Below, in pieces: positions 32,381-47,059 of a stretch of DNA of 64,000 bases (within the stretch, counting starts at the first letter, position 1; the number at the start of each line of letters is the position of its first letter). Location: IMG/VR virus record IMGVR_UViG_3300020171_000001, positions 93,288 to 157,287 of that record. One strand, written 5' to 3'. Origin of the DNA: a virus. Under the pieces are notes generated by a model that searched no databases, was not told the origin of the DNA, and saw only the letters and a program-made list of their open reading frames with translations. Both the position numbers and the translations under genes were made by a program.

Positions 32381-34495
32381 TTACTCTGACCGACTGGGCA
32401 GAGCAATATGGTTGTAGATACGGTTGTAGACAGCCCGGAAGGTGGGCACCCCTGGGATTTCCGGATCCACCAGTTTGCCTTCCGAGAATGCAAAAGCGAA
32501 TCGGTGTCCTACGCTCCCAATGCTCTTCTCATCAGGGGTCGTCCAGAAGATCGGGCGGGTGACCCGCCGGCCCACAGCACTGCCGAGCGTGATGGCCTCT
32601 TCTTTCAGCTCGGTCTGGATGATCAGGTCTGCGCCGGCCGGCACGTACGTGCGGTTTTGGCCGCTGATCCCCAGCACGATCTTGTCCACCTCGGTTTCGC
32701 CTGTGGGCCGCCCCTGCGCGTTGAGCTTTTCGCGCATGACGGCTTGCTCGTGCCCCACGATGATGCGATTCAGTGGCAGTGCGTTGATCCCCTCCTGGAG
32801 CACCTGGAGGAAGTTGTTGAACTGGCCATAGTCAGCGCGCTCGAACAGAACACCGCCCTGCTCCTGCATGCGTTCGGCCCAGCGCTTCGACGGATCGTTG
32901 CTCTTTCGCCCGAGGCCTTGCAGTCCTGGAGGCGGGCGTGTGTCGCTGAGCATGCTGTATCGGAATGCGATCAGGTCCGTCATCCAGAGCCGCTGGAGGA
33001 ATCCGATGGAGTCCAGTACAACCGTGGCCACGCCCCATGCGAGCCAGTTGGCCTCGATCATCTTGATCGCGTCCAGCAGACAATGCTTTGGCGGATACCC
33101 CGAGATGTTCTCCGCGTCACGCGACGATCCAGAGTAGTAGATGTCGAAGTGCGGTGGCTCCGACCGGTTGAAAACTGGCGGCGGCAGATCCTTGTTCTTC
33201 CACTGGCTCAGGAGGTACTGCGCGATCTGCGGGTAGGTCCCCAGCGCCGCGTTGCCGCCTTCGGCCACGATGTTCAGCACGATGGGCGCCGGCCATTGAT
33301 AGCACCAGGTGGAGTTGTGCACCACGAAGTCATTGGCCACGAAGTTGTGACTGCCGTCTACAGTCAAGTCGTAGACTGTATCGACATGGGTAGGTACCAC
33401 ACTGATGACTCGATCAAAGACAATGGGACCGAGGCGATCCAACTGGGTTTCAGATCCCCGTACCTGGTACAGCGCGGCGCGCACGACCTCTGCCTTGGCG
33501 AGCTTCCCGCCGAAGAAGCCAATCTCGTCGATGAAGCGTAGCACGTTGGCCTTGCTGGAAATAGCCAGATCAGAGCCATAATGCTCACCGCCGCGCAGAC
33601 GTTCTCCGACGATCGAGACGATACCGAAGCGGGAGAGTAGGTGTTGGACCTGCTGGACGAGGCGAGTCGATGTCGAACTATAGCTCACTTGCCCTGTGAT
33701 GTGCACCGATCCGTCGCAGGTGAACAGCCGGTTGAGAAACAGAGCCAGTTTACGCTTCTTGAGACCGAATACGAAGTCCGGGATGAACTTGTCGGGGGAT
33801 CGCAGCCCGTGCAATCCTACCTTCTTGAGGAAGGTGATGATGCTGTTGCGCTTGCCCTTCTTGCCGCGTACCCGGACGTGGGATATTCCCTCCTTGTTGG
33901 TGAACTCCACGCACTCGCCGCCTCTGGCCTCCACCGCGGCTTCGAAGTCCATACGGACCTCTGGATCAGCCTTGGTGAAGACGGGCGAGGAGCTTGGGCC
34001 AAGGGATCCGTCGGCGATGAGATAGGCCAGGATCTTGATCAGCGAGTCGTTGGTCTTGGTGCTGCCGAACATGCTCGGGTATTCGGCAATGATAGCTACA
34101 CGGTCCCCAACACCCAGATCGGAGAGGTCTTTCCAGCCTCCTCGTGTGAGGAACGGATGGTTGCCAGTAGCCTCGATGCTCCGCCCCGTCTGGGTCGTCA
34201 GTCGGTAGAGCTGGGCAGGCTCATGAATTGAATAGCCACTCGGGCGCTGCGGCACAATGACGCTGGCCTCTTTCATGGTGAAGACACTCGCCTCGCTACC
34301 TTCAACCACGTCCTTTATTGTCGTGGGGCGTCCAGTGCCCGGGTCGTACATGATCGTGTCGCCGCTCAGGCACTTCCATGTCTTGGGCGGCCCAAAGATG
34401 AGAACGGAGCACTTCTTCGATGTCTTTGGATCCACCAGGGTGGATTGGTCCACAGATGCCTCGTAGGTCACGGCGTCATTCCATTGCGCGGTCAT
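32381..34495 (-). CDS. AAA_24/Sak4-like recombination ATPase, intein-containing
   Basis: VLIFGPPKTWK|intein|ST Walker A, TVVLDSI Walker B, DYG, IIVGHE; ATGA-coupled to SNF2 gene. Confidence 0.82.
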   Translation of the reverse strand: MTAQWNDAVTYEASVDQSTLVDPKTSKKCSVLIFGPPKTWKCLSGDTIMYDPGTGRPTTIKDVVEGSEASVFTMKEASVIVPQRPSGYSIHEPAQLYRLTTQTGRSIEATGNHPFLTRGGWKDLSDLGVGDRVAIIAEYPSMFGSTKTNDSLIKILAYLIADGSLGPSSSPVFTKADPEVRMDFEAAVEARGGECVEFTNKEGISHVRVRGKKGKRNSIITFLKKVGLHGLRSPDKFIPDFVFGLKKRKLALFLNRLFTCDGSVHITGQVSYSSTSTRLVQQVQHLLSRFGIVSIVGERLRGGEHYGSDLAISSKANVLRFIDEIGFFGGKLAKAEVVRAALYQVRGSETQLDRLGPIVFDRVISVVPTHVDTVYDLTVDGSHNFVANDFVVHNSTWCYQWPAPIVLNIVAEGGNAALGTYPQIAQYLLSQWKNKDLPPPVFNRSEPPHFDIYYSGSSRDAENISGYPPKHCLLDAIKMIEANWLAWGVATVVLDSIGFLQRLWMTDLIAFRYSMLSDTRPPPGLQGLGRKSNDPSKRWAERMQEQGGVLFERADYGQFNNFLQVLQEGINALPLNRIIVGHEQAVMREKLNAQGRPTGETEVDKIVLGISGQNRTYVPAGADLIIQTELKEEAITLGSAVGRRVTRPIFWTTPDEKSIGSVGHRFAFAFSEGKLVDPEIPGVPTFRAVYNRIYNHIALPSRSE
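33314..34372 (-). mobile_element. intein (353 aa) with LAGLIDADG homing endonuclease
   Basis: Starts CLSGDT, block B TGNHPF, LAYLIADG and LFTCDG motifs, ends VYDLTV..HNFVANDFVVHN/S. Confidence 0.95.
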
Positions 34496-36585
34496 GCGTT
34501 CTCCGTTGGGAAGACCTGCCACAGGATCACTCGGTCTTCGTTGTCTTGCACGATGACGGCCCAGCCCTTTCCAGGGCAATACCCGAGGCCGGCGAGCGTG
34601 TCCTCGTCCAGACTCTCGAGACACGCCAGTGCTTCCGGCGGCGCGCCGTGCAACGCCCATTGCTCGGCCGGGACAAGAGGGAAGTCGGTAAGCGGATCCA
34701 CGAGTTCTTCAGTCGGCTCACCCACGGGCACAGGGCCATTCGCGAGTATGGGCGCGTCGCGCACATCACCAGATTCACCAGTGGGACCAGCATGCCCAGT
34801 GGACTCGTCGGCAGACTCAGGGGCCAAGGCCATTCCGGCTTCCCCCATTCCGGGTGCTACAAACGGATCCAGCACTTGAAGATGCTGGATTATGCCGTCC
34901 CAGAGAGCCCCTGCATCCTGCAACAGAGCTGTGTCACCTGCGAGGTCACGTCCTACAGCTTCGTCAGGGCCCAGTCCAAGAACATCGGAGACATCCGATT
35001 CCTTTTCTATGATGCGCTGCAGGATGCGCTCGTCGACTGGGTTGCCGTCCAAGAAAAGGTAGACGGACTCCTTCTCTGTTTCTACGTTGTCGCCCTCAGA
35101 GAGAAGACGGCCTTCTACCTGCAGGTTGGTATCAGGATTCCAGAACGGTGTGACCATCAGCGCAGCCGTGGCTGTCCGCAGGCTGTGGTTGGACACGCCA
35201 ATGCTCCCGGCCGTGCCTACAAGGATCGCATGGTCATAGTCCCCGAGCGCTGCACACACGGCCCAGCGCTTGGCCACCAGCATGCCTCCGTCTACGGGCC
35301 CGAGAATCGACACGGTCTCTGGGGCCGTCTCCCGGAGTTCAGCGGTTAGGACCTTGGCGCTCTCCCGGCGCTCGGTGAAGACGATGACTCGAGCGTGCTG
35401 CGTGGCAAGGGACAAGGCCTCGCGGGCTGCATGACGCACCTTCACAGAGGCCATGGCCGTGATAGCGTGGGTCAACGCGACCAACTTCTCCGGGTATTTC
35501 TGCGTCGACTCTGCACCCGCGCCATTGGCGTTCAGGGAGAGCCGAAAGCCCCCCAGGTTCACGCGGATCTTGGGGTTCTTTGCTTGTCGGGCCTGCGCGG
35601 CTTTGCGCCCGGCGGAAAGGATGGCTTCCTGCAACTCACTGCGCTCAGATCCTGTGAGTACAAGGCGCTTGGCTGTTCGACGGACTCGCGTACCGCCCAA
35701 CGCTGCTGCCGTGCCACGACTGACCTTTAGCGTGCAGCTGTTGATCCGCGCCCGGAGTTCCGCCGTGTTTGTGGCGCCCGTGGGCCGCCAATACACCTGG
35801 CCACCGCGTGACCGGTTCTGCTCGAGCCCCACGTACCGCACTGAGAACTCGTGGGCTGTCCCCCACTGGCCAGGTTGCATACAGTCGAGCTGGGACCAGA
35901 GGTTTTGGCGACCCGTTCGAATCGGCGTCGCCGTCAGCCCGATTCGATAGCGCACCGAAGCCATACCGCTGAGGGCCCGCGACGCGCGGGTGCGCTGCGC
36001 CGCAGGGTTCGCGATGCAGTGGGACTCATCGAAGATAATAACGTAGGGGTGCTGCCCATGGGGCAGTCGCCCGATATCCAGTGTGTTGTCATCCAGGACC
36101 TCGTAGTGCACGAAGGTCCATGTGTTTCCGGGGAGCGACGTGGTAGCTTTTCGCTGGTCCCACGGCACAACGCGGAGGTCGAAGCACCGCGCCGGATCGC
36201 TATTCGGGGCGCACCAAGTATCAAGGGCTTGGAGCGGTCCGACGATCATCCCGGGCTGACCCAGCAAACCCATGCGCCAGATGGCCTGGAGCGACAAAAA
36301 GGTCTTCCCCATGCCGGGCTGGGCATAATAGCTGCAGCCATTGGCTTGGAATCCCAGCGCGTCCAACCCATGGCTGTGGAGAGCTTCAGTCATGAACGAC
36401 ACAGCACGTCGCTGGTACCCCTTGAGTCGGTAGTGCCCGAATGGCGTACGGTCTACGGGGTCTTCGGGGTAGTCCAGAATGCTGCGAAGCGGCATGGTGA
36501 GATCCAGGCAGTTCACCGGGATGCTCTCTCCTCCGCGTGTGACGCGATAGGGTCCGACAATTTTGATTAGCGATTCCAACGCCAA
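34492..36585 (-). CDS. SNF2-family helicase
   Basis: LKGYQ, QPGMGKT, DESH, TATPI...LWSQL, WNP...QVEGR. Confidence 0.88.
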   Translation of the reverse strand: MALESLIKIVGPYRVTRGGESIPVNCLDLTMPLRSILDYPEDPVDRTPFGHYRLKGYQRRAVSFMTEALHSHGLDALGFQANGCSYYAQPGMGKTFLSLQAIWRMGLLGQPGMIVGPLQALDTWCAPNSDPARCFDLRVVPWDQRKATTSLPGNTWTFVHYEVLDDNTLDIGRLPHGQHPYVIIFDESHCIANPAAQRTRASRALSGMASVRYRIGLTATPIRTGRQNLWSQLDCMQPGQWGTAHEFSVRYVGLEQNRSRGGQVYWRPTGATNTAELRARINSCTLKVSRGTAAALGGTRVRRTAKRLVLTGSERSELQEAILSAGRKAAQARQAKNPKIRVNLGGFRLSLNANGAGAESTQKYPEKLVALTHAITAMASVKVRHAAREALSLATQHARVIVFTERRESAKVLTAELRETAPETVSILGPVDGGMLVAKRWAVCAALGDYDHAILVGTAGSIGVSNHSLRTATAALMVTPFWNPDTNLQVEGRLLSEGDNVETEKESVYLFLDGNPVDERILQRIIEKESDVSDVLGLGPDEAVGRDLAGDTALLQDAGALWDGIIQHLQVLDPFVAPGMGEAGMALAPESADESTGHAGPTGESGDVRDAPILANGPVPVGEPTEELVDPLTDFPLVPAEQWALHGAPPEALACLESLDEDTLAGLGYCPGKGWAVIVQDNEDRVILWQVFPTENA

Positions 36586-36788: not shown

Positions 36789-37922
36789 ATGGAGATACAC
36801 GGTCTGACTTACCATTCCACACCAGAGATCATCAGCCTCGGCGACCCGCCCGAAGGCCGGTGGATTCTCAAGCCCCTAATTCCTGCGGTGGGAAAGACCA
36901 TCGTATTCGGCGCGCCGAACGACTACAAGACATTTACGATGCTGGATCTCTGCTTGGCCTATGGAAGCAATGGCTCGCTCTTCCAAGAACTTCCGTTGCA
37001 AAAACACGGGCGTGGGCTGTTCATCACGGTCGAGGGCGACGCCTATGACACACGGGATCGGCTCTCCATGCTCTTGCGCGGGCAAGCCAATCTGGACCCG
37101 GGGAAGATCGACCTGTTCTTCGGGCACGAGCCGATCTACCTCAACACGCCGCGTGGGATCCAGATCTTGGGCGAGGTGATCGGCGACATCAAGCCAGGGC
37201 TCGTGGTCCTTGATCCTTTGCGGCACTTCATCCCTGGCTGCGACGAGAACGATGCCACCCGCGTGAGCGCCGTCTGCGAGGGCCTCAACACGCTCCTGCG
37301 CACCCACCGGTTCTCTCTGGTGGTGATCCACCACGCGGGAAAGCGCGGGGATATGCGCGGGTCGTCGGCCTGGGATGGCTGGGCCGACAGCGAAATCCAG
37401 TTCATCGCGGCTCGCAATCAGATCTTGGAGGGGATGGGGGGCCCCTGCGACGTGATCACGATGCGCCAGCGCAAGGTCCGGAACGCGGGGTACTCCGATG
37501 ACTTCTTGCTCGTGCCCTTGATCGATGACAAGACCATGACGGCCTTCTACTCCATCATGGAGGGTCCCATACAGGGGGACACCCCGGTGGCTATCGATGG
37601 TGCTCAACGCATCCTCCACTGGTGGAACATCGAGGGATCCATCGGTGATTGCGCAGGTGGATTCGCCGTAGACAGCGCCCGGCGCGGAGCCAATATCTCG
37701 CCAGAGAAGGCCAAGGCCGGATTGCTGTTCCTGGAGCGCCGTGGGCGCGCCAAGCAGATCAAGATTCTTCGCAGACGCGGGGCCGACGGCTTCGGTAGTT
37801 TTCCCGGGTGGGTTATCGAGGCCTCGACAACAGATCATATCCGTGCGATGCTCTCCGTCATGAAACGGCATATGGCCGCCGACGAACCCCAGGTCGATTG
37901 GGCCGAGGAAGACACGGTGTAG
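36789..37922 (+). CDS. AAA_25 (RepA/SF4-like) helicase without primase domain
   Basis: WILKPLIP...FGAPNDYKT, EG, LVVLDPL, DEND, VIHHAGK...MRGSSA; GAGGAG RBS. Confidence 0.85.
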   Translation: MEIHGLTYHSTPEIISLGDPPEGRWILKPLIPAVGKTIVFGAPNDYKTFTMLDLCLAYGSNGSLFQELPLQKHGRGLFITVEGDAYDTRDRLSMLLRGQANLDPGKIDLFFGHEPIYLNTPRGIQILGEVIGDIKPGLVVLDPLRHFIPGCDENDATRVSAVCEGLNTLLRTHRFSLVVIHHAGKRGDMRGSSAWDGWADSEIQFIAARNQILEGMGGPCDVITMRQRKVRNAGYSDDFLLVPLIDDKTMTAFYSIMEGPIQGDTPVAIDGAQRILHWWNIEGSIGDCAGGFAVDSARRGANISPEKAKAGLLFLERRGRAKQIKILRRRGADGFGSFPGWVIEASTTDHIRAMLSVMKRHMAADEPQVDWAEEDTV

Positions 37923-37927
37923 CACAC

Positions 37928-38197
37928 GTGCTGACCCTGGAAAGCGAAGTTGAGAGCGTCCTGGCCATGCTGTCCACGGACTGGTCCCTGCGTCAACTGT
38001 ACGAGCGTCTCGTGGGCGCCCTGGAAGACCGCGGTATCGTGCCAGGCGCACCAGTGCCTACAGACCGTGACTGGCTTGCTCTCGAGCTTGATGCCGGGGA
38101 GGGGCACATGCGGCCCCTGGCAACGCTCCTGTTCCGCGTGAGGGACTCGCAGCAAAGTTGCCCGCAGTGGGTCCGGCAGATCAAGTCGCGGTTCTAA
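37928..38197 (+). CDS. small hypothetical protein
   Basis: Follows AAA_25; VLTLESEVE... Confidence 0.45.
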   Translation: MLTLESEVESVLAMLSTDWSLRQLYERLVGALEDRGIVPGAPVPTDRDWLALELDAGEGHMRPLATLLFRVRDSQQSCPQWVRQIKSRF

Positions 38198-38342
38198 AGC
38201 CCAGTTCAATAAAAGGCCTGGCGCGGGGGAGAGGGACCCGGCCAGGCTTCCTACAATACCGCGGAGAGGGAGACAGGTACCCCGGAGTCTAGCAAAGGCT
38301 CCTGCGCCATGCAAGAGCTATTGCTTCCAGCTCTGAGCCCGC

Positions 38343-38377
38343 GCAGCCCGCAGCCCGCAGCCCGCAGCCCGCAGCCC
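38343..38377. repeat. (GCAGCCC)5 tandem repeat
   Basis: Read directly; intergenic. Confidence 0.95.
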
Positions 38378-38571
38378 GCGCCAACGAAGGCCCACCCAAA
38401 CCCTCCCCTACGAGACTTACATATGTGAGACACTTTAGCTGGTCTGCGGTAGTGAGACTCGCAACCTGTGGGGCTACCGAGTGGCAGTTTGCGAACTCTT
38501 TCGCGTCTGCAAGCGTGCTCCTGCGGGGTTCGGCAGAGCCCCGATTTTGGCCGGTGGGGGGGCCCTCGCTC

Positions 38572-38650
38572 TATACGGAAACAGCAAAAGTGAACAAATC
38601 TCGACTTATCCACAGGTATTTCTGAATGATTCCGAGACGTTCGAGATTTT
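38572..38650 (+). repeat. left copy of 79-bp inverted repeat, DnaA box TTATCCACA at 38606-38614
   Basis: 77/79 identical to the reverse complement of 45649-45727. Confidence 0.95.
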
Positions 38651-38685
38651 CGTGCGGATCTGTCACACTGTCCCGTGACCACGAA

Positions 38686-44700: not shown

Positions 44701-45522
44701 TCACTGGGCCATCCACCACTGCGTCATCCACCGGGTTCCAAACCAGAGCGCGAGCCCAGCCACAGTGAGGGACAGCAAGAGCCAGATGCACCCGGTGTAT
44801 CGGGGTAGGCCCACCGGCAGCTCCTCTGCCTGCGTCTGCCCATGGTCTGGGGCAGGTACACCCCGTGGGCCCCGTGGGCCCCTTGGGCCCCGCGGCGGGT
44901 CGTAGCCGGCTGTTGCAAGCGCGGCCAGCTGCCGAGCACGGTGCGGGCCTGGCGGGACCAGGATCTCGAAACGGGATTTGCCAGCGGGCCTCCGGGCCCC
45001 GCGGCCGCCAGACTGGGCCACGGTGACCGGCGCACCCACTGTCGGGTCGAGGATGACCCAGGAGACAGCCGGGATGTCGACTCCTGTGTTCCAGATGCGT
45101 GTGGCGACCACAGCATGCACTGAGCCCGGTTGACTGGCGATGCGTGCGGCCAAGTCTGCTCGTTCGGCCACCGTAGTGGTTTGCCCGCTAACAGCGACAA
45201 TACGCTCGACTCCAGGCAGTACGGGCAGCAGCGTCTTGGGGCCCGAGTCTGCGTTACCCGAGGTCGGGGCTGAGGACAGAGACTGTTCCGGTGCCAGTGC
45301 CCAGTCCGGCCGGAGTATCGCGACCCGGGCGCGGAGCGCCGTCGTGAGTTTGTGCATCGCAGCAATCGACGGGACTAGGACGAGCCCCGGGCCGCGGCGA
45401 ATGTCCAGGATCCGGGCCAGGGCTTTGTCTACGATCCAGGCTTCGGTGGGGTCCAGTTCCATGCCAGATTCCTGCCCATCGAATACCGCGCCTGTCCAGT
45501 CCACCTGCAGCGCATGAGACAT
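44701..45522 (-). CDS. SF2 helicase C-terminal (RecA2) domain with C-terminal transmembrane-like helix
   Basis: GLVLVPSI (IV), VATRIWNTGVDIP (V), QSGGRGAR (VI); ends CIWLLLSLTVAGLALWFG. Confidence 0.85.
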   Translation of the reverse strand: MSHALQVDWTGAVFDGQESGMELDPTEAWIVDKALARILDIRRGPGLVLVPSIAAMHKLTTALRARVAILRPDWALAPEQSLSSAPTSGNADSGPKTLLPVLPGVERIVAVSGQTTTVAERADLAARIASQPGSVHAVVATRIWNTGVDIPAVSWVILDPTVGAPVTVAQSGGRGARRPAGKSRFEILVPPGPHRARQLAALATAGYDPPRGPRGPRGPRGVPAPDHGQTQAEELPVGLPRYTGCIWLLLSLTVAGLALWFGTRWMTQWWMAQ

Positions 45523-45648
45523 ATGGCGTGCCCCCTTGTAGCTCACGGGTTGATCCATGGGGTTTGCGCGATCAGCAAAAATCTCAATCGATGTGCAATA
45601 TCGTTGAGGAATTCGCGGCAGATCGGCCTATATTTCGTGTTTTCGACA

Positions 45649-45727
45649 AAAATCTCGAACGTCTCAAAATCATTCAGAAATACCTGTGGATAAGTCGAGA
45701 TTTGTTCACTTTTGCTGTTTCCGTATA
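45649..45727 (-). repeat. right copy of 79-bp inverted repeat, DnaA box at 45685-45693
   Basis: Reverse complement of 38572-38650 with 2 mismatches. Confidence 0.95.
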
Positions 45728-45958
45728 AGGCCGGGGCATCTTTTTGGCCATCATCGGGGCCTCTTTGCAAGGGATTGAAGGCCTGAGTAGGGCCCTGTCT
45801 CACGCCATGCGTGAGACACATGAGACATACCCCAGCGTGGTCTGGCGAACTGCAGAAGTTCTCGGTTCTGGCTGCGCTACACCGGCCGATTGGCGCATGC
45901 ACGGAGCACAGCAAATGCCCACGCGCGTCTGCTTCCACGCGCTTGTGCATGTGCACAC

Positions 45959-47059
45959 TCACGCCCCTGTCTCAGCAAAGCCCGAGCCTGAGTCCCGCTC
46001 CACGTCCACGATGCAACCGCCAGACAGGAATCCGGCATCGACCAGCGCCGGCATGGATGCCTGCGCCGGCGTACGAAGTACAGGCCCGGTCAGCGCCACC
46101 ACAGACATGTTTCGCCCGTCCTGCCGACCGGCTGGAGTTGCCGACAGCCCGATGACCATCTGAGCGCGTTGGATGCCCCGCGTGACCCATGCCATGCGCT
46201 GTTCCCCGCCGAGAGTGTGGCACTCGTCAATGAGGACTCCCGTCCAGCCCCCCGGGGGCTCGTCGCCAATCCCCCCGTAGGATACGCAATGCAGCCAGTC
46301 CCAGCCACAGCCACAGTCGCCGATGCCTGTGCCGGCTTCTGCATCAGCTCCGGTGCCCGCCGCCAACTGCAACCGCGGAAGTGCCCTGTGGAGCACCCGG
46401 GCAGTCTGCCGAGCCAGCTCAGCGTTCGGCGCAATGTAAAGCCAGCGCCCGCCCAGAACTCGACGGCCTACCGCCAGAATCGCGGCAGCAACCCACGTCT
46501 TGCCGGCACCGCAGCTGGCAGACAGGATCCCGCGCCCGAAGGGCGCCGAGAAGGCTGACCAGGCCAGATCTGCCTGGTAGGGACGCAATGGAGCATCGGG
46601 GACCGACGCCAGCCTCAAAAGCGCCTGGCGCAGTTCCCACGCGCGTTCTCGGGTCAAGCAACTGGCAACCTGGGGCCCGCCGGCAACACGCAGTACAGGG
46701 CAAATGCGGTCTGTTGATGCCCATGTGAACGCCGAGGACGGAGACACAGCATGGGCCATCCAGGCGACCAAGCCCATGGGCATCGTCTGGTCTGCCGAGC
46801 CCAACCCGGCAGTCCACAGCATGCCCTCCAGGGACTCTTGACATGCCCAGCGCAAGGCTCGCAAGGCCCCGGGTCGCGAAGCAGCACGACCGCGGCTATC
46901 GCGTGCGAGGCGAGACAACCCGCCAGGTGTACGGACTTCTGCATCGCACGCCAGGCGCAGCCAGGTCTCGTAAAACGATTGAGAATCAGGCCCCTCGCAG
47001 ACCCGTGCTCGGGCGTCTCCAAGGCGCATGATTTCCAAACTCACGTAGCGGGTAGACAT
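45959..47059 (-). CDS. SF2 helicase N-terminal (RecA1, DExH) domain, UvsW/XPB-like
   Basis: LRPYQ, SCGAGKT, LYIAPN..LARQ, DECH, GLSATP.R.DG, LVDAGFLS then stop. Confidence 0.85.
   Translation of the reverse strand: MSTRYVSLEIMRLGDARARVCEGPDSQSFYETWLRLACDAEVRTPGGLSRLARDSRGRAASRPGALRALRWACQESLEGMLWTAGLGSADQTMPMGLVAWMAHAVSPSSAFTWASTDRICPVLRVAGGPQVASCLTRERAWELRQALLRLASVPDAPLRPYQADLAWSAFSAPFGRGILSASCGAGKTWVAAAILAVGRRVLGGRWLYIAPNAELARQTARVLHRALPRLQLAAGTGADAEAGTGIGDCGCGWDWLHCVSYGGIGDEPPGGWTGVLIDECHTLGGEQRMAWVTRGIQRAQMVIGLSATPAGRQDGRNMSVVALTGPVLRTPAQASMPALVDAGFLSGGCIVDVERDSGSGFAETGA

Follow-up and report, generated by a model that had tools for sequence, protein, structure and literature searches.

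The two halves of the helicase

The window analysed here is the last 64 kb (64,000 nucleotides) of the 157,287-bp IMG/VR virus record IMGVR_UViG_3300020171_000001, which has direct terminal repeats; the sequencing runs containing the stretch are mainly groundwater metagenomes. Its leftward (minus-strand) replication and recombination block begins directly left of a region that carries a plus-strand open reading frame (ORF) of 621 aa and the large terminase gene. At the head of the block lie two genes that divide the motifs of a superfamily 2 (SF2) helicase between them: the first gene of the block, here called the N-half, encodes RecA1, while RecA2 is encoded by the C-half beyond a non-coding spacer (Table 1). 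SF2 motors are textbook single chains with the ATP site between two RecA domains. A preliminary description of the window had proposed that a repeat element split the helicase, that its halves form a membrane-tethered heterodimer, and that inversion of the repeat-bounded block would uncouple them.

Table 1. Helicase genes, spacer, repeat arms and neighbouring genes, in window coordinates (for the relatives, coordinates of the respective locus)
Feature	Position	Strand or orientation	Basis or context
Helicase N-half gene, 366 aa	45959-47059	-	ORF, Pfam, PHROG, alignments, AlphaFold2 (AF2), Foldseek
Helicase C-half gene, 273 aa from ATG 45522	44701-45522	-	ORF, ribosome-binding site, Pfam, PHROG, alignments, AF2
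(PRG)4 low-complexity linker, C-half residues 210-221	44860-44895	-	sequence, AF2
Hydrophobic segment CIWLLLSLTVAGLALWFG, probable tail anchor, C-half residues 245-262	44737-44790	-	sequence, hydropathy, AF2, relatives
Non-coding spacer, 436 bp	45523-45958		between the helicase genes
Right arm of the 92-nt inverted repeat	45646-45737		92% identity to left arm
Left arm of the inverted repeat	38562-38653		between the 3' ends of the plus-strand AAA_25 gene and the minus-strand UvrD-like gene
Gap repeats in relatives	L004 6538-6769; L026 5626-5683; L028 5592-5638; L023 5705-5836	inverted or direct	
PD-(D/E)XK (Cas4/RecB-like) exonuclease, 772 aa	41900-44218	-	syntenic in all related loci
UvrD-like helicase, 1086 aa	38686-41946	-	last conserved member of the syntenic block
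HNH/endonuclease-VII-like gene, 137 aa	44215-44628	-	free-standing, between C-half and exonuclease
AAA_25 (RepA/DnaB-like RecA-type ATPase) ORF, 382 aa	36774-37922	+	converges on the UvrD-like gene

The split does not stem from the assembly. In the probable source run, the entire stretch is covered by Logan contigs at about 60-70x with zero variants, and a run from a second study covers parts of the N-half gene, the C-half gene and the gap. The latter differs from the window only by two non-synonymous changes and a 6-nt deletion that keeps the frame, and all three fall within one lineage-specific N-half loop. This variable loop is Gly/Ala/Cys-rich and lies between motifs Ia and II; in the second-study run (X2; window 46231-46419) the deletion is found at 46341 and the non-synonymous changes at 46309 and 46350.

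The N-half starts with an ATG 7 nt behind the ribosome-binding site AGGAG. Pfam assigned it to ResIII (2.8e-9) and DEAD (1.6e-8) and to nothing else, and it contains LRPYQ, GAGKT (motif I), motif Ia, DECH (motif II), SAT (motif III) and a RED-type RQD, so that everything required of an SF2 RecA1 domain (motif I GxGKT, motif II DExH and motif III SAT) is present. The alignments show little or no variation at G184, G186, K187, T188, D278, E279, H281, S306 and T308. A lineage-specific N-terminal region (residues 1-135) is followed by RecA1, which AF2 models with confidence, by the inter-domain linker and by the counterpart of the first strand of RecA2; the protein ends at a TGA (45959-45961), 21 aa past LVDAGFLS.

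The open frame of the C-half spans 44701-45558. Its likely start is the ATG at 45522, because an AAGGGGG (45528-45534) precedes this codon by 8 nt and because the relatives start at the equivalent place. Here Helicase_C (7.4e-6) is the only Pfam match, and the fold matches RecA2 domains. Motifs IV-VI are present, with VATRIWNTGVDIP as motif V and QSGGRGARR as motif VI, including the arginine fingers that complete the set required of an SF2 RecA2 domain; W144, G147, D149, P151, Q170, R174 and R177 are invariant in the alignments. The protein also has a lineage-specific insertion of 33 aa. Both halves match the same PHROG family (phrog_16, 'DNA helicase') at consecutive parts, the N-half at 268-448 and the C-half at 478-589 of 986 positions. 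As the C-half is the sole Helicase_C match in the entire 157-kb genome, the N-half has no other candidate partner. The ORFs, the Pfam assignments and the consecutive phrog_16 parts thus agree with the preliminary description in the partition of the motifs between two genes, the second with its own ATG and ribosome-binding site, and the alignments bear out its statement that the catalytic motifs of both halves are intact.

Age and spread of the split

An N-half HMMER search over 1.84 billion cluster representatives (50% identity) gave 260 matches, the best 150 of which were examined. Two thirds of these (100 of 150) are N-half-only proteins that end 0-41 aa past the position of query residue 350, 90 of them beginning with Met; among the matches with E <= 1e-10 the share is 80 of 82. 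In the alignment all N-half-only proteins stop a few residues beyond the conserved 'LE..G.L..G.V' strand, while the fused relatives P0059 and P0076 continue into RecA2. Even P0028, P0069 and P0073, which have a large intein-like insertion between DEC and H of motif II, are N-half-only proteins with the same stop point. A different large insertion is seen near motif I of P0068.

The comparison of loci covered eight relatives (seven distinct), of which six come from JGI metagenomes and two from IMG/VR; their GC content is 46-65% and their identity 29-38%. The same cut is found in all eight, and the order of the genes is constant: N-half, gap, C-half with its own start, PD-(D/E)XK exonuclease and UvrD-like helicase. 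Neither in the window nor in the related loci do both RecA domains lie on one polypeptide. The gaps of the related loci are non-coding, AT-rich and 101-371 bp long, and their exonucleases (737-788 aa) resemble that of the window. While a word-indexed search with the C-half sequence alone gave no match, a search with a profile built from the C-halves added nine more proteins of 221-257 aa that contain Helicase_C only.

In a RecA1-core FastTree (145 sequences, 201 columns, unrooted) one bipartition with a support of 0.98 places all 49 fused forms on one side, joined by just three short ones, which indicates a single event. Because the same cut, the gene order and a hydrophobic C-terminal tail recur across the relatives, the split must be old; it probably arose once and has been kept by selection. 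Five of the 49 fused relatives (P0093, P0096, P0109, P0113 and P0118) are tailed as well, and three of them are the fused forms placed closest to the window protein in the tree; the tail therefore probably predates the split.

Neither half gave a tblastn match at E <= 1e-3 in 50,697 phage records, single-protein scans of IMG/VR yielded no relative, and none was found in 185,579 species genomes scanned with the family alignment, which hence offer no prophage or host clue.

These comparisons bear on the cause of the split. In the preliminary description it was attributed to the repeat element, which would imply that a mobile repeat had recently entered a continuous helicase gene and that the halves are decaying or open by accident. 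The gap does contain one arm of a two-copy repeat whose GC content is lower than that of the surroundings, and an HNH homing-type gene follows directly downstream. Yet relatives at 30-38% identity, a distance at which synonymous sites are saturated, whose gaps are unrelated to that of the window and give no sign of its repeat, are cut at the same residue position, as are the 100 representatives, so that the cut long predates the repeat pair. Moreover, neither half has lost a catalytic motif, the C-half is preceded by a ribosome-binding site of its own and has a start shared with the relatives, the repeat occurs in only two copies rather than the many of a miniature inverted-repeat transposable element or an insertion sequence, and no target-site duplication was seen. 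We therefore regard a recent disruption as extremely unlikely; in practical terms, the split in the window should not be put down to the repeat.

The halves could also be rejoined after or during expression, by a split intein, an intron in the gap or translational bypass. The intein-like insertions in motif II of three relatives and in two neighbouring genes, together with a Cys in the N-half tail (GGCIVDV), would speak for such a route. However, Pfam searches of both halves at E <= 0.1 detect neither Hint nor intein domains, the N-half tails extend a variable 0-41 aa past the last strand and have no conserved Cys or Ser, and the heads of the C-halves align as helicase, with none showing the HN+Cys/Ser/Thr junction of a split intein. 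Rfam has no match between 38000 and 47500 of the window or in seven related loci, by which an intron or a known RNA in the gap is rejected. With gaps of 101-436 nt that are unrelated in sequence and have stops in all frames, and with a ribosome-binding site in front of every C-half, rejoining in any of these ways appears very improbable.

The hydrophobic tail of the C-half

Behind its RecA2 domain the C-half continues into the (PRG)4 linker, which is part of a stretch of about 35 residues modelled with low confidence by AF2, and ends in a hydrophobic segment of 18 residues with Arg on its N-terminal side and 11 Trp-rich residues after it. The segment was judged by Kyte-Doolittle hydropathy and AF2 alone. 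The best 19-residue mean of the C-half is 1.89, starting at residue 244 of 273, and the top three windows all lie in the tail; neither half has a segment of comparable hydropathy elsewhere, the best mean of the N-half being 1.38. The customary threshold for membrane spans is 1.6, which the window tail exceeds. From a 16-sequence alignment AF2 modelled RecA2 confidently and, past the low-confidence linker, a terminal helix of residues 242-272 with a predicted local distance difference test (pLDDT) value of ~97. The linker and the Trp-flanked hydrophobic helix of the preliminary description are thus both found, and the C-half has the layout of a tail-anchored protein: one hydrophobic segment of ~18-25 residues, no more than ~30 residues from the C-terminus, and no other.

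A hydrophobic tail of ~18-25 residues is also present at the extreme end of all 16 other C-half rows (15 distinct). These tails are usually flanked by Trp or Tyr, and their sequences are unalike and cannot be aligned.

Alternatively, the protein would still be a two-subunit helicase with a tail that serves as an oligomerisation or docking helix, whose target might be the N-half, the nuclease or some component of the virion or replisome. The tails differ widely and some are of low hydropathy (19-residue mean of 0.98 in L023, 17-residue mean of 1.36 in P0156), the AF2 model shows a helix and nothing more, and no other membrane protein is evident in the block. On the other hand, a segment of 18-25 residues at the very C-terminus, preceded by a disordered linker and basic residues and flanked by Trp or Tyr, is what usually marks a tail anchor, and the window value lies above the general threshold. 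Conservation of hydrophobicity but not of sequence is likewise unlike a specific protein contact. A docking helix consequently seems to us rather unlikely, and a tail anchor the better description of the segment.

Kinship to XPB and to other helicases

The best solved match of the N-half profile is archaeal XPBII (6p4f, 5tnu; E ~8e-18), followed by eukaryotic XPB/Rad25, and Foldseek with the AF2 model also ranked XPB first. After motif III, R312-Q313-D314 aligns with the RED residues of StXPB, which read RDD (R205/D206/D207; PMC7672443). In the widest alignments R312 is invariant and D314 nearly so, while Q313 is invariant only among 10 close relatives. The N-half profile ends at about StXPB residue 245 and the thumb (ThM) of StXPB comprises residues 258-299 (PMC7672443), which places the cut at the position of the XPB domain insertion, between the first strand of HD2 and its remainder. 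No thumb-sized domain remains there: upstream of motif IV the C-half has only ~40 residues with one modelled helix. By its profile and fold the phage protein is an XPB-like helicase, and we do not call it an XPB orthologue.

Like XPB, Rad25 and Ssl2 (StXPB, 5tnu/6p4f; AfXPB, 2fwr; the XPB of TFIIH), the phage helicase has the profile, the fold and the position of the RED-type motif, but it consists of two polypeptides cut at the ThM site, with a probable C-terminal tail anchor, where XPB is one chain. A nuclease gene adjoins the helicase gene as in archaeal XPB-Bax1, the phage nuclease being PD-(D/E)XK/Cas4-like. By sequence, the nearest relatives in cultured phages are single-chain PHROG 16 helicases such as gp19.5 of Bacillus phage SPO1, with which the two halves share the phrog_16 match and the location in a replication module; for the fused relative P0093, the top matches among cultured phages are helicases of the SPO1 type (~30% identity). 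SPO1 gp19.5 differs in being annotated as one open gene (~530 aa by coordinates) without a hydrophobic tail. The five fused tailed relatives named above combine ResIII and Helicase_C with a C-terminal hydrophobic segment and differ from the window proteins in being single chains of 450-542 aa.

Other phage enzymes are split as well, namely the NrdA of Aeromonas phage Aeh1, whose gene is interrupted by mobE, and the T4 topoisomerase gp39/gp60. As with the phage helicase, one enzyme is specified by two genes whose products are presumed to reassemble. They are not SF2 motors, however, and the DNA between the nrdA halves of Aeh1 is a homing endonuclease gene, while the helicase spacer is non-coding and the split clade-wide. 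For the membrane tethering, a functional analogy without homology is offered by the phi29 proteins p16.7 and p1, which organise phage replication at the membrane, and by NS3 of hepatitis C virus (HCV), an SF2 helicase tethered to the membrane via NS4A. The anchor is carried by a non-enzymatic DNA-binding protein in phi29 and by a cofactor in HCV. In the literature searched, phage SF2 helicases that are split or tail-anchored are not described.

The spacer and the repeat pair

Estimated at about 440 bp in the preliminary description, the gap measures 436 bp and does hold the right arm of the inverted repeat. The half of the spacer nearer to the C-half gene is AT-rich; its GC content drops to 33% in the lowest 60 nt, compared with 63% in the window as a whole, and it belongs to the three lowest-GC 200-nt stretches of the genome. 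A sigma-70 scan gave nothing above shuffled sequences, and no promoter is claimed for the C-half. Stops occur in all frames of the gap. A 139-codon frame through the gap (45543-45962) was rejected as a gene: it shares peptide sequence with a 79-codon frame at the left arm only across the repeat, three of the four differences between the two frames are synonymous, which is too few to call them coding, and no homologue was found, so that the frame was treated as non-coding.

The inverted repeat has only two copies in the 157-kb genome, 6,992 nt apart. The right arm contains a perfect DnaA box TTATCCACA (45685-45693, minus strand) flanked by 9-nt inverted arms AAATCTCGA / TCGAGATTT (45650-45658, 45695-45703), 36 nt apart, and the left-arm box is framed in the same way, by 9-nt inverted arms with the same spacing. 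The genome has no perfect DnaA box besides these two; ~0.4 would be expected by base composition. A third copy of the arm motif, GAGATTTTTG, is found ~70 nt inward in both repeat arms; the layout resembles that of iterons with a DnaA box.

In all eight loci the gap lies 10-19 GC points under its own locus. Inverted repeats improbable by chance, with arms of 9-19 nt and spacers of 27-36 nt, are present in the gaps of the window, L004, L026 and L028 (arms of 10-19 nt and spacers of 27-34 nt in the latter three), and the L023 gap has three copies of a 15-nt motif; the repeat architecture is thus kept among the relatives and the sequence is not. The gap of L004, a phage of 46% GC with a helicase 34% identical, contains the same DnaA box and flanks, ACTTATCCACAGnTATTT, as the window arms, and that of L027 a DnaA box with one mismatch. 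Taken together, the AT-rich gap looks like a conserved regulatory or origin-like feature and may function as an origin, an operator or promoter, or a terminator; the evidence for reading it as origin-like in particular is weak. The right arm is more likely the resident copy and the left arm a secondary copy of a pre-existing gap feature, in which case the part of the spacer with the DnaA box and the short inverted arms would have been copied once, inverted, 7 kb away. Plotted cumulatively, the GC skew stays on a broad plateau at 119-139 kb and declines close to the right arm; gene orientation explains this equally well, and the skew was not used as evidence for an origin.

A more far-reaching possibility would be that the AT-rich spacer, whose DnaA box between inverted arms occurs twice in the genome, is the replication origin, on which the two-piece translocase assembles. 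Fixed at the membrane, the translocase would pump duplex DNA and the resulting torsion would melt the origin, much as promoters are melted by TFIIH-bound XPB, with the split acting as a switch by which the membrane and the timing of C-half synthesis control origin firing. We consider this elaboration unlikely.

For the block between the arms, the preliminary description had suggested an inversion that uncouples the two halves. The block is indeed flanked by 92-nt inverted arms, as an invertible segment would be. In the probable source run it forms a 7,096-nt unitig, both ends of which match the repeat in opposite orientation, and a 60-nt Logan node at roughly double the depth represents the collapsed repeat core. 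Because the unitigs break at the repeat, the contigs do not tell which way round the block lies; as recorded, it matches the gene order seen in all relatives. Scans of the neighbouring ORFs gave no match to recombinase families, and no evidence of inversion was obtained. Furthermore, the C-half would retain its ribosome-binding site, the proximal spacer and an identical repeat upstream after an inversion, and uncoupling does not follow.

A probable two-subunit, tail-anchored motor

We consider it likely that each of the two genes encodes one subunit of a single XPB-like SF2 DNA translocase or helicase, which has consisted of two polypeptides since before the radiation of the clade, with a tail-anchored C-half and with no causal part for the repeat. 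Of the proposal in the preliminary description, the membrane-tethered heterodimer is the part that finds support in the clade, in the conserved split, the intact motifs and the anchor-like tail. That the heterodimer is a working one is likewise supported by the conservation of intact motifs and tail across a large phage clade.

In such a motor the N-half would supply RecA1 with motifs I and II for ATP binding, motif III and the RQD/RED DNA-wedge motif, plus the first strand of RecA2, and the C-half the remaining RecA2 with the motif VI arginine fingers. As motifs I and II and the motif VI arginines belong to different proteins, the ATPase site would form only on docking of the halves, and ATP hydrolysis should require both. 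The pair would probably be held together by the strand that the N-half contributes in trans to complete the RecA2 sheet. The cut itself, at the site of the ThM insertion in XPB, may lie at a position tolerant of interruption. Through the tail anchor behind the flexible linker the C-half would be held at the cytoplasmic face of the inner membrane; the Pro/Arg/Gly linker, the basic residues before the hydrophobic segment and the Trp-rich end after it point to a motor on the cytoplasmic side. The assembled motor could then act on phage DNA at the membrane. Its partners may be the PD-(D/E)XK exonuclease and the UvrD-like helicase in replication-coupled recombination or end processing, as the constancy of these two neighbours suggests recombination-dependent replication or end processing at the membrane.

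Instead of forming one motor, the halves might function separately or with different partners. The long, AT-rich and repeat-bearing gap could hold an internal promoter or terminator and give the genes different timing. Against this, the genes are adjacent in eight of eight loci and the genome has no other Helicase_C partner; moreover, we know of no activity of a RecA1 domain without the motif VI arginines or of a RecA2 domain without a P-loop on its own. We thus judge separate action very unlikely and continue to favour the two-subunit motor.

Some observations weigh against the two-subunit, tail-anchored motor or narrow its base. As the tree is unrooted, the preference for one split over one fusion depends on the general rule that SF2 helicases are single chains. 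What is said of gene order and tails comes from only 8 loci and 9 additional C-halves. Instead of spanning a membrane, the tail could make contact with another protein. N-half residues 1-131 are modelled at a pLDDT below 50, the N-terminal part of the profile was left unaligned to XPB, and these 131 residues are common only to P0002 among the homologues; a DRD-like domain is therefore not claimed. Finally, the DnaA box is perfect in only 2 of the 8 gaps, with one further single-mismatch copy, which weakens the origin-like reading of the gap.

If the two-subunit motor is correct, at least ~100 sequence clusters of uncultured phages keep a motor that is cut at the RecA hinge, one half of which is apparently tied to the membrane. 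They would offer a natural system for studying the assembly of a helicase cleft in trans, and they point to membrane-linked DNA transactions in a phage group without a cultured member. In annotation, the two genes are easily mistaken for a truncated helicase or a pseudogene.

Neighbouring genes

Between the C-half and the exonuclease lies the HNH/endonuclease-VII-like gene, which overlaps the start of the exonuclease by 4 nt. No related locus gave a tblastn match to this gene, and the C-half directly adjoins the exonuclease in L003 and L004; it is likely a homing-endonuclease insertion. The UvrD-like protein has an insertion of ~355 residues (~340-695) that is intein-like, with a Cys start after ...SDLAQ and an end of ...VHN followed by Ser. 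It is skipped exactly by tblastn to L003, L024 and L028, and Pfam flagged no intein in it. The second intein-bearing gene of the replication block is a 759-aa ORF (32381-34660, minus strand), in which Pfam finds Intein_splicing and LAGLIDADG_3.

The AAA_25 ORF is overlapped by a minus-strand ORF (36876-38051). The latter has no family match, and the plus-strand ORF is therefore probably the real gene. Where it converges with the UvrD-like gene, the intergenic DNA has a short tandem array of CGCAGCC at 38340-38385, immediately to the left of the left repeat arm.

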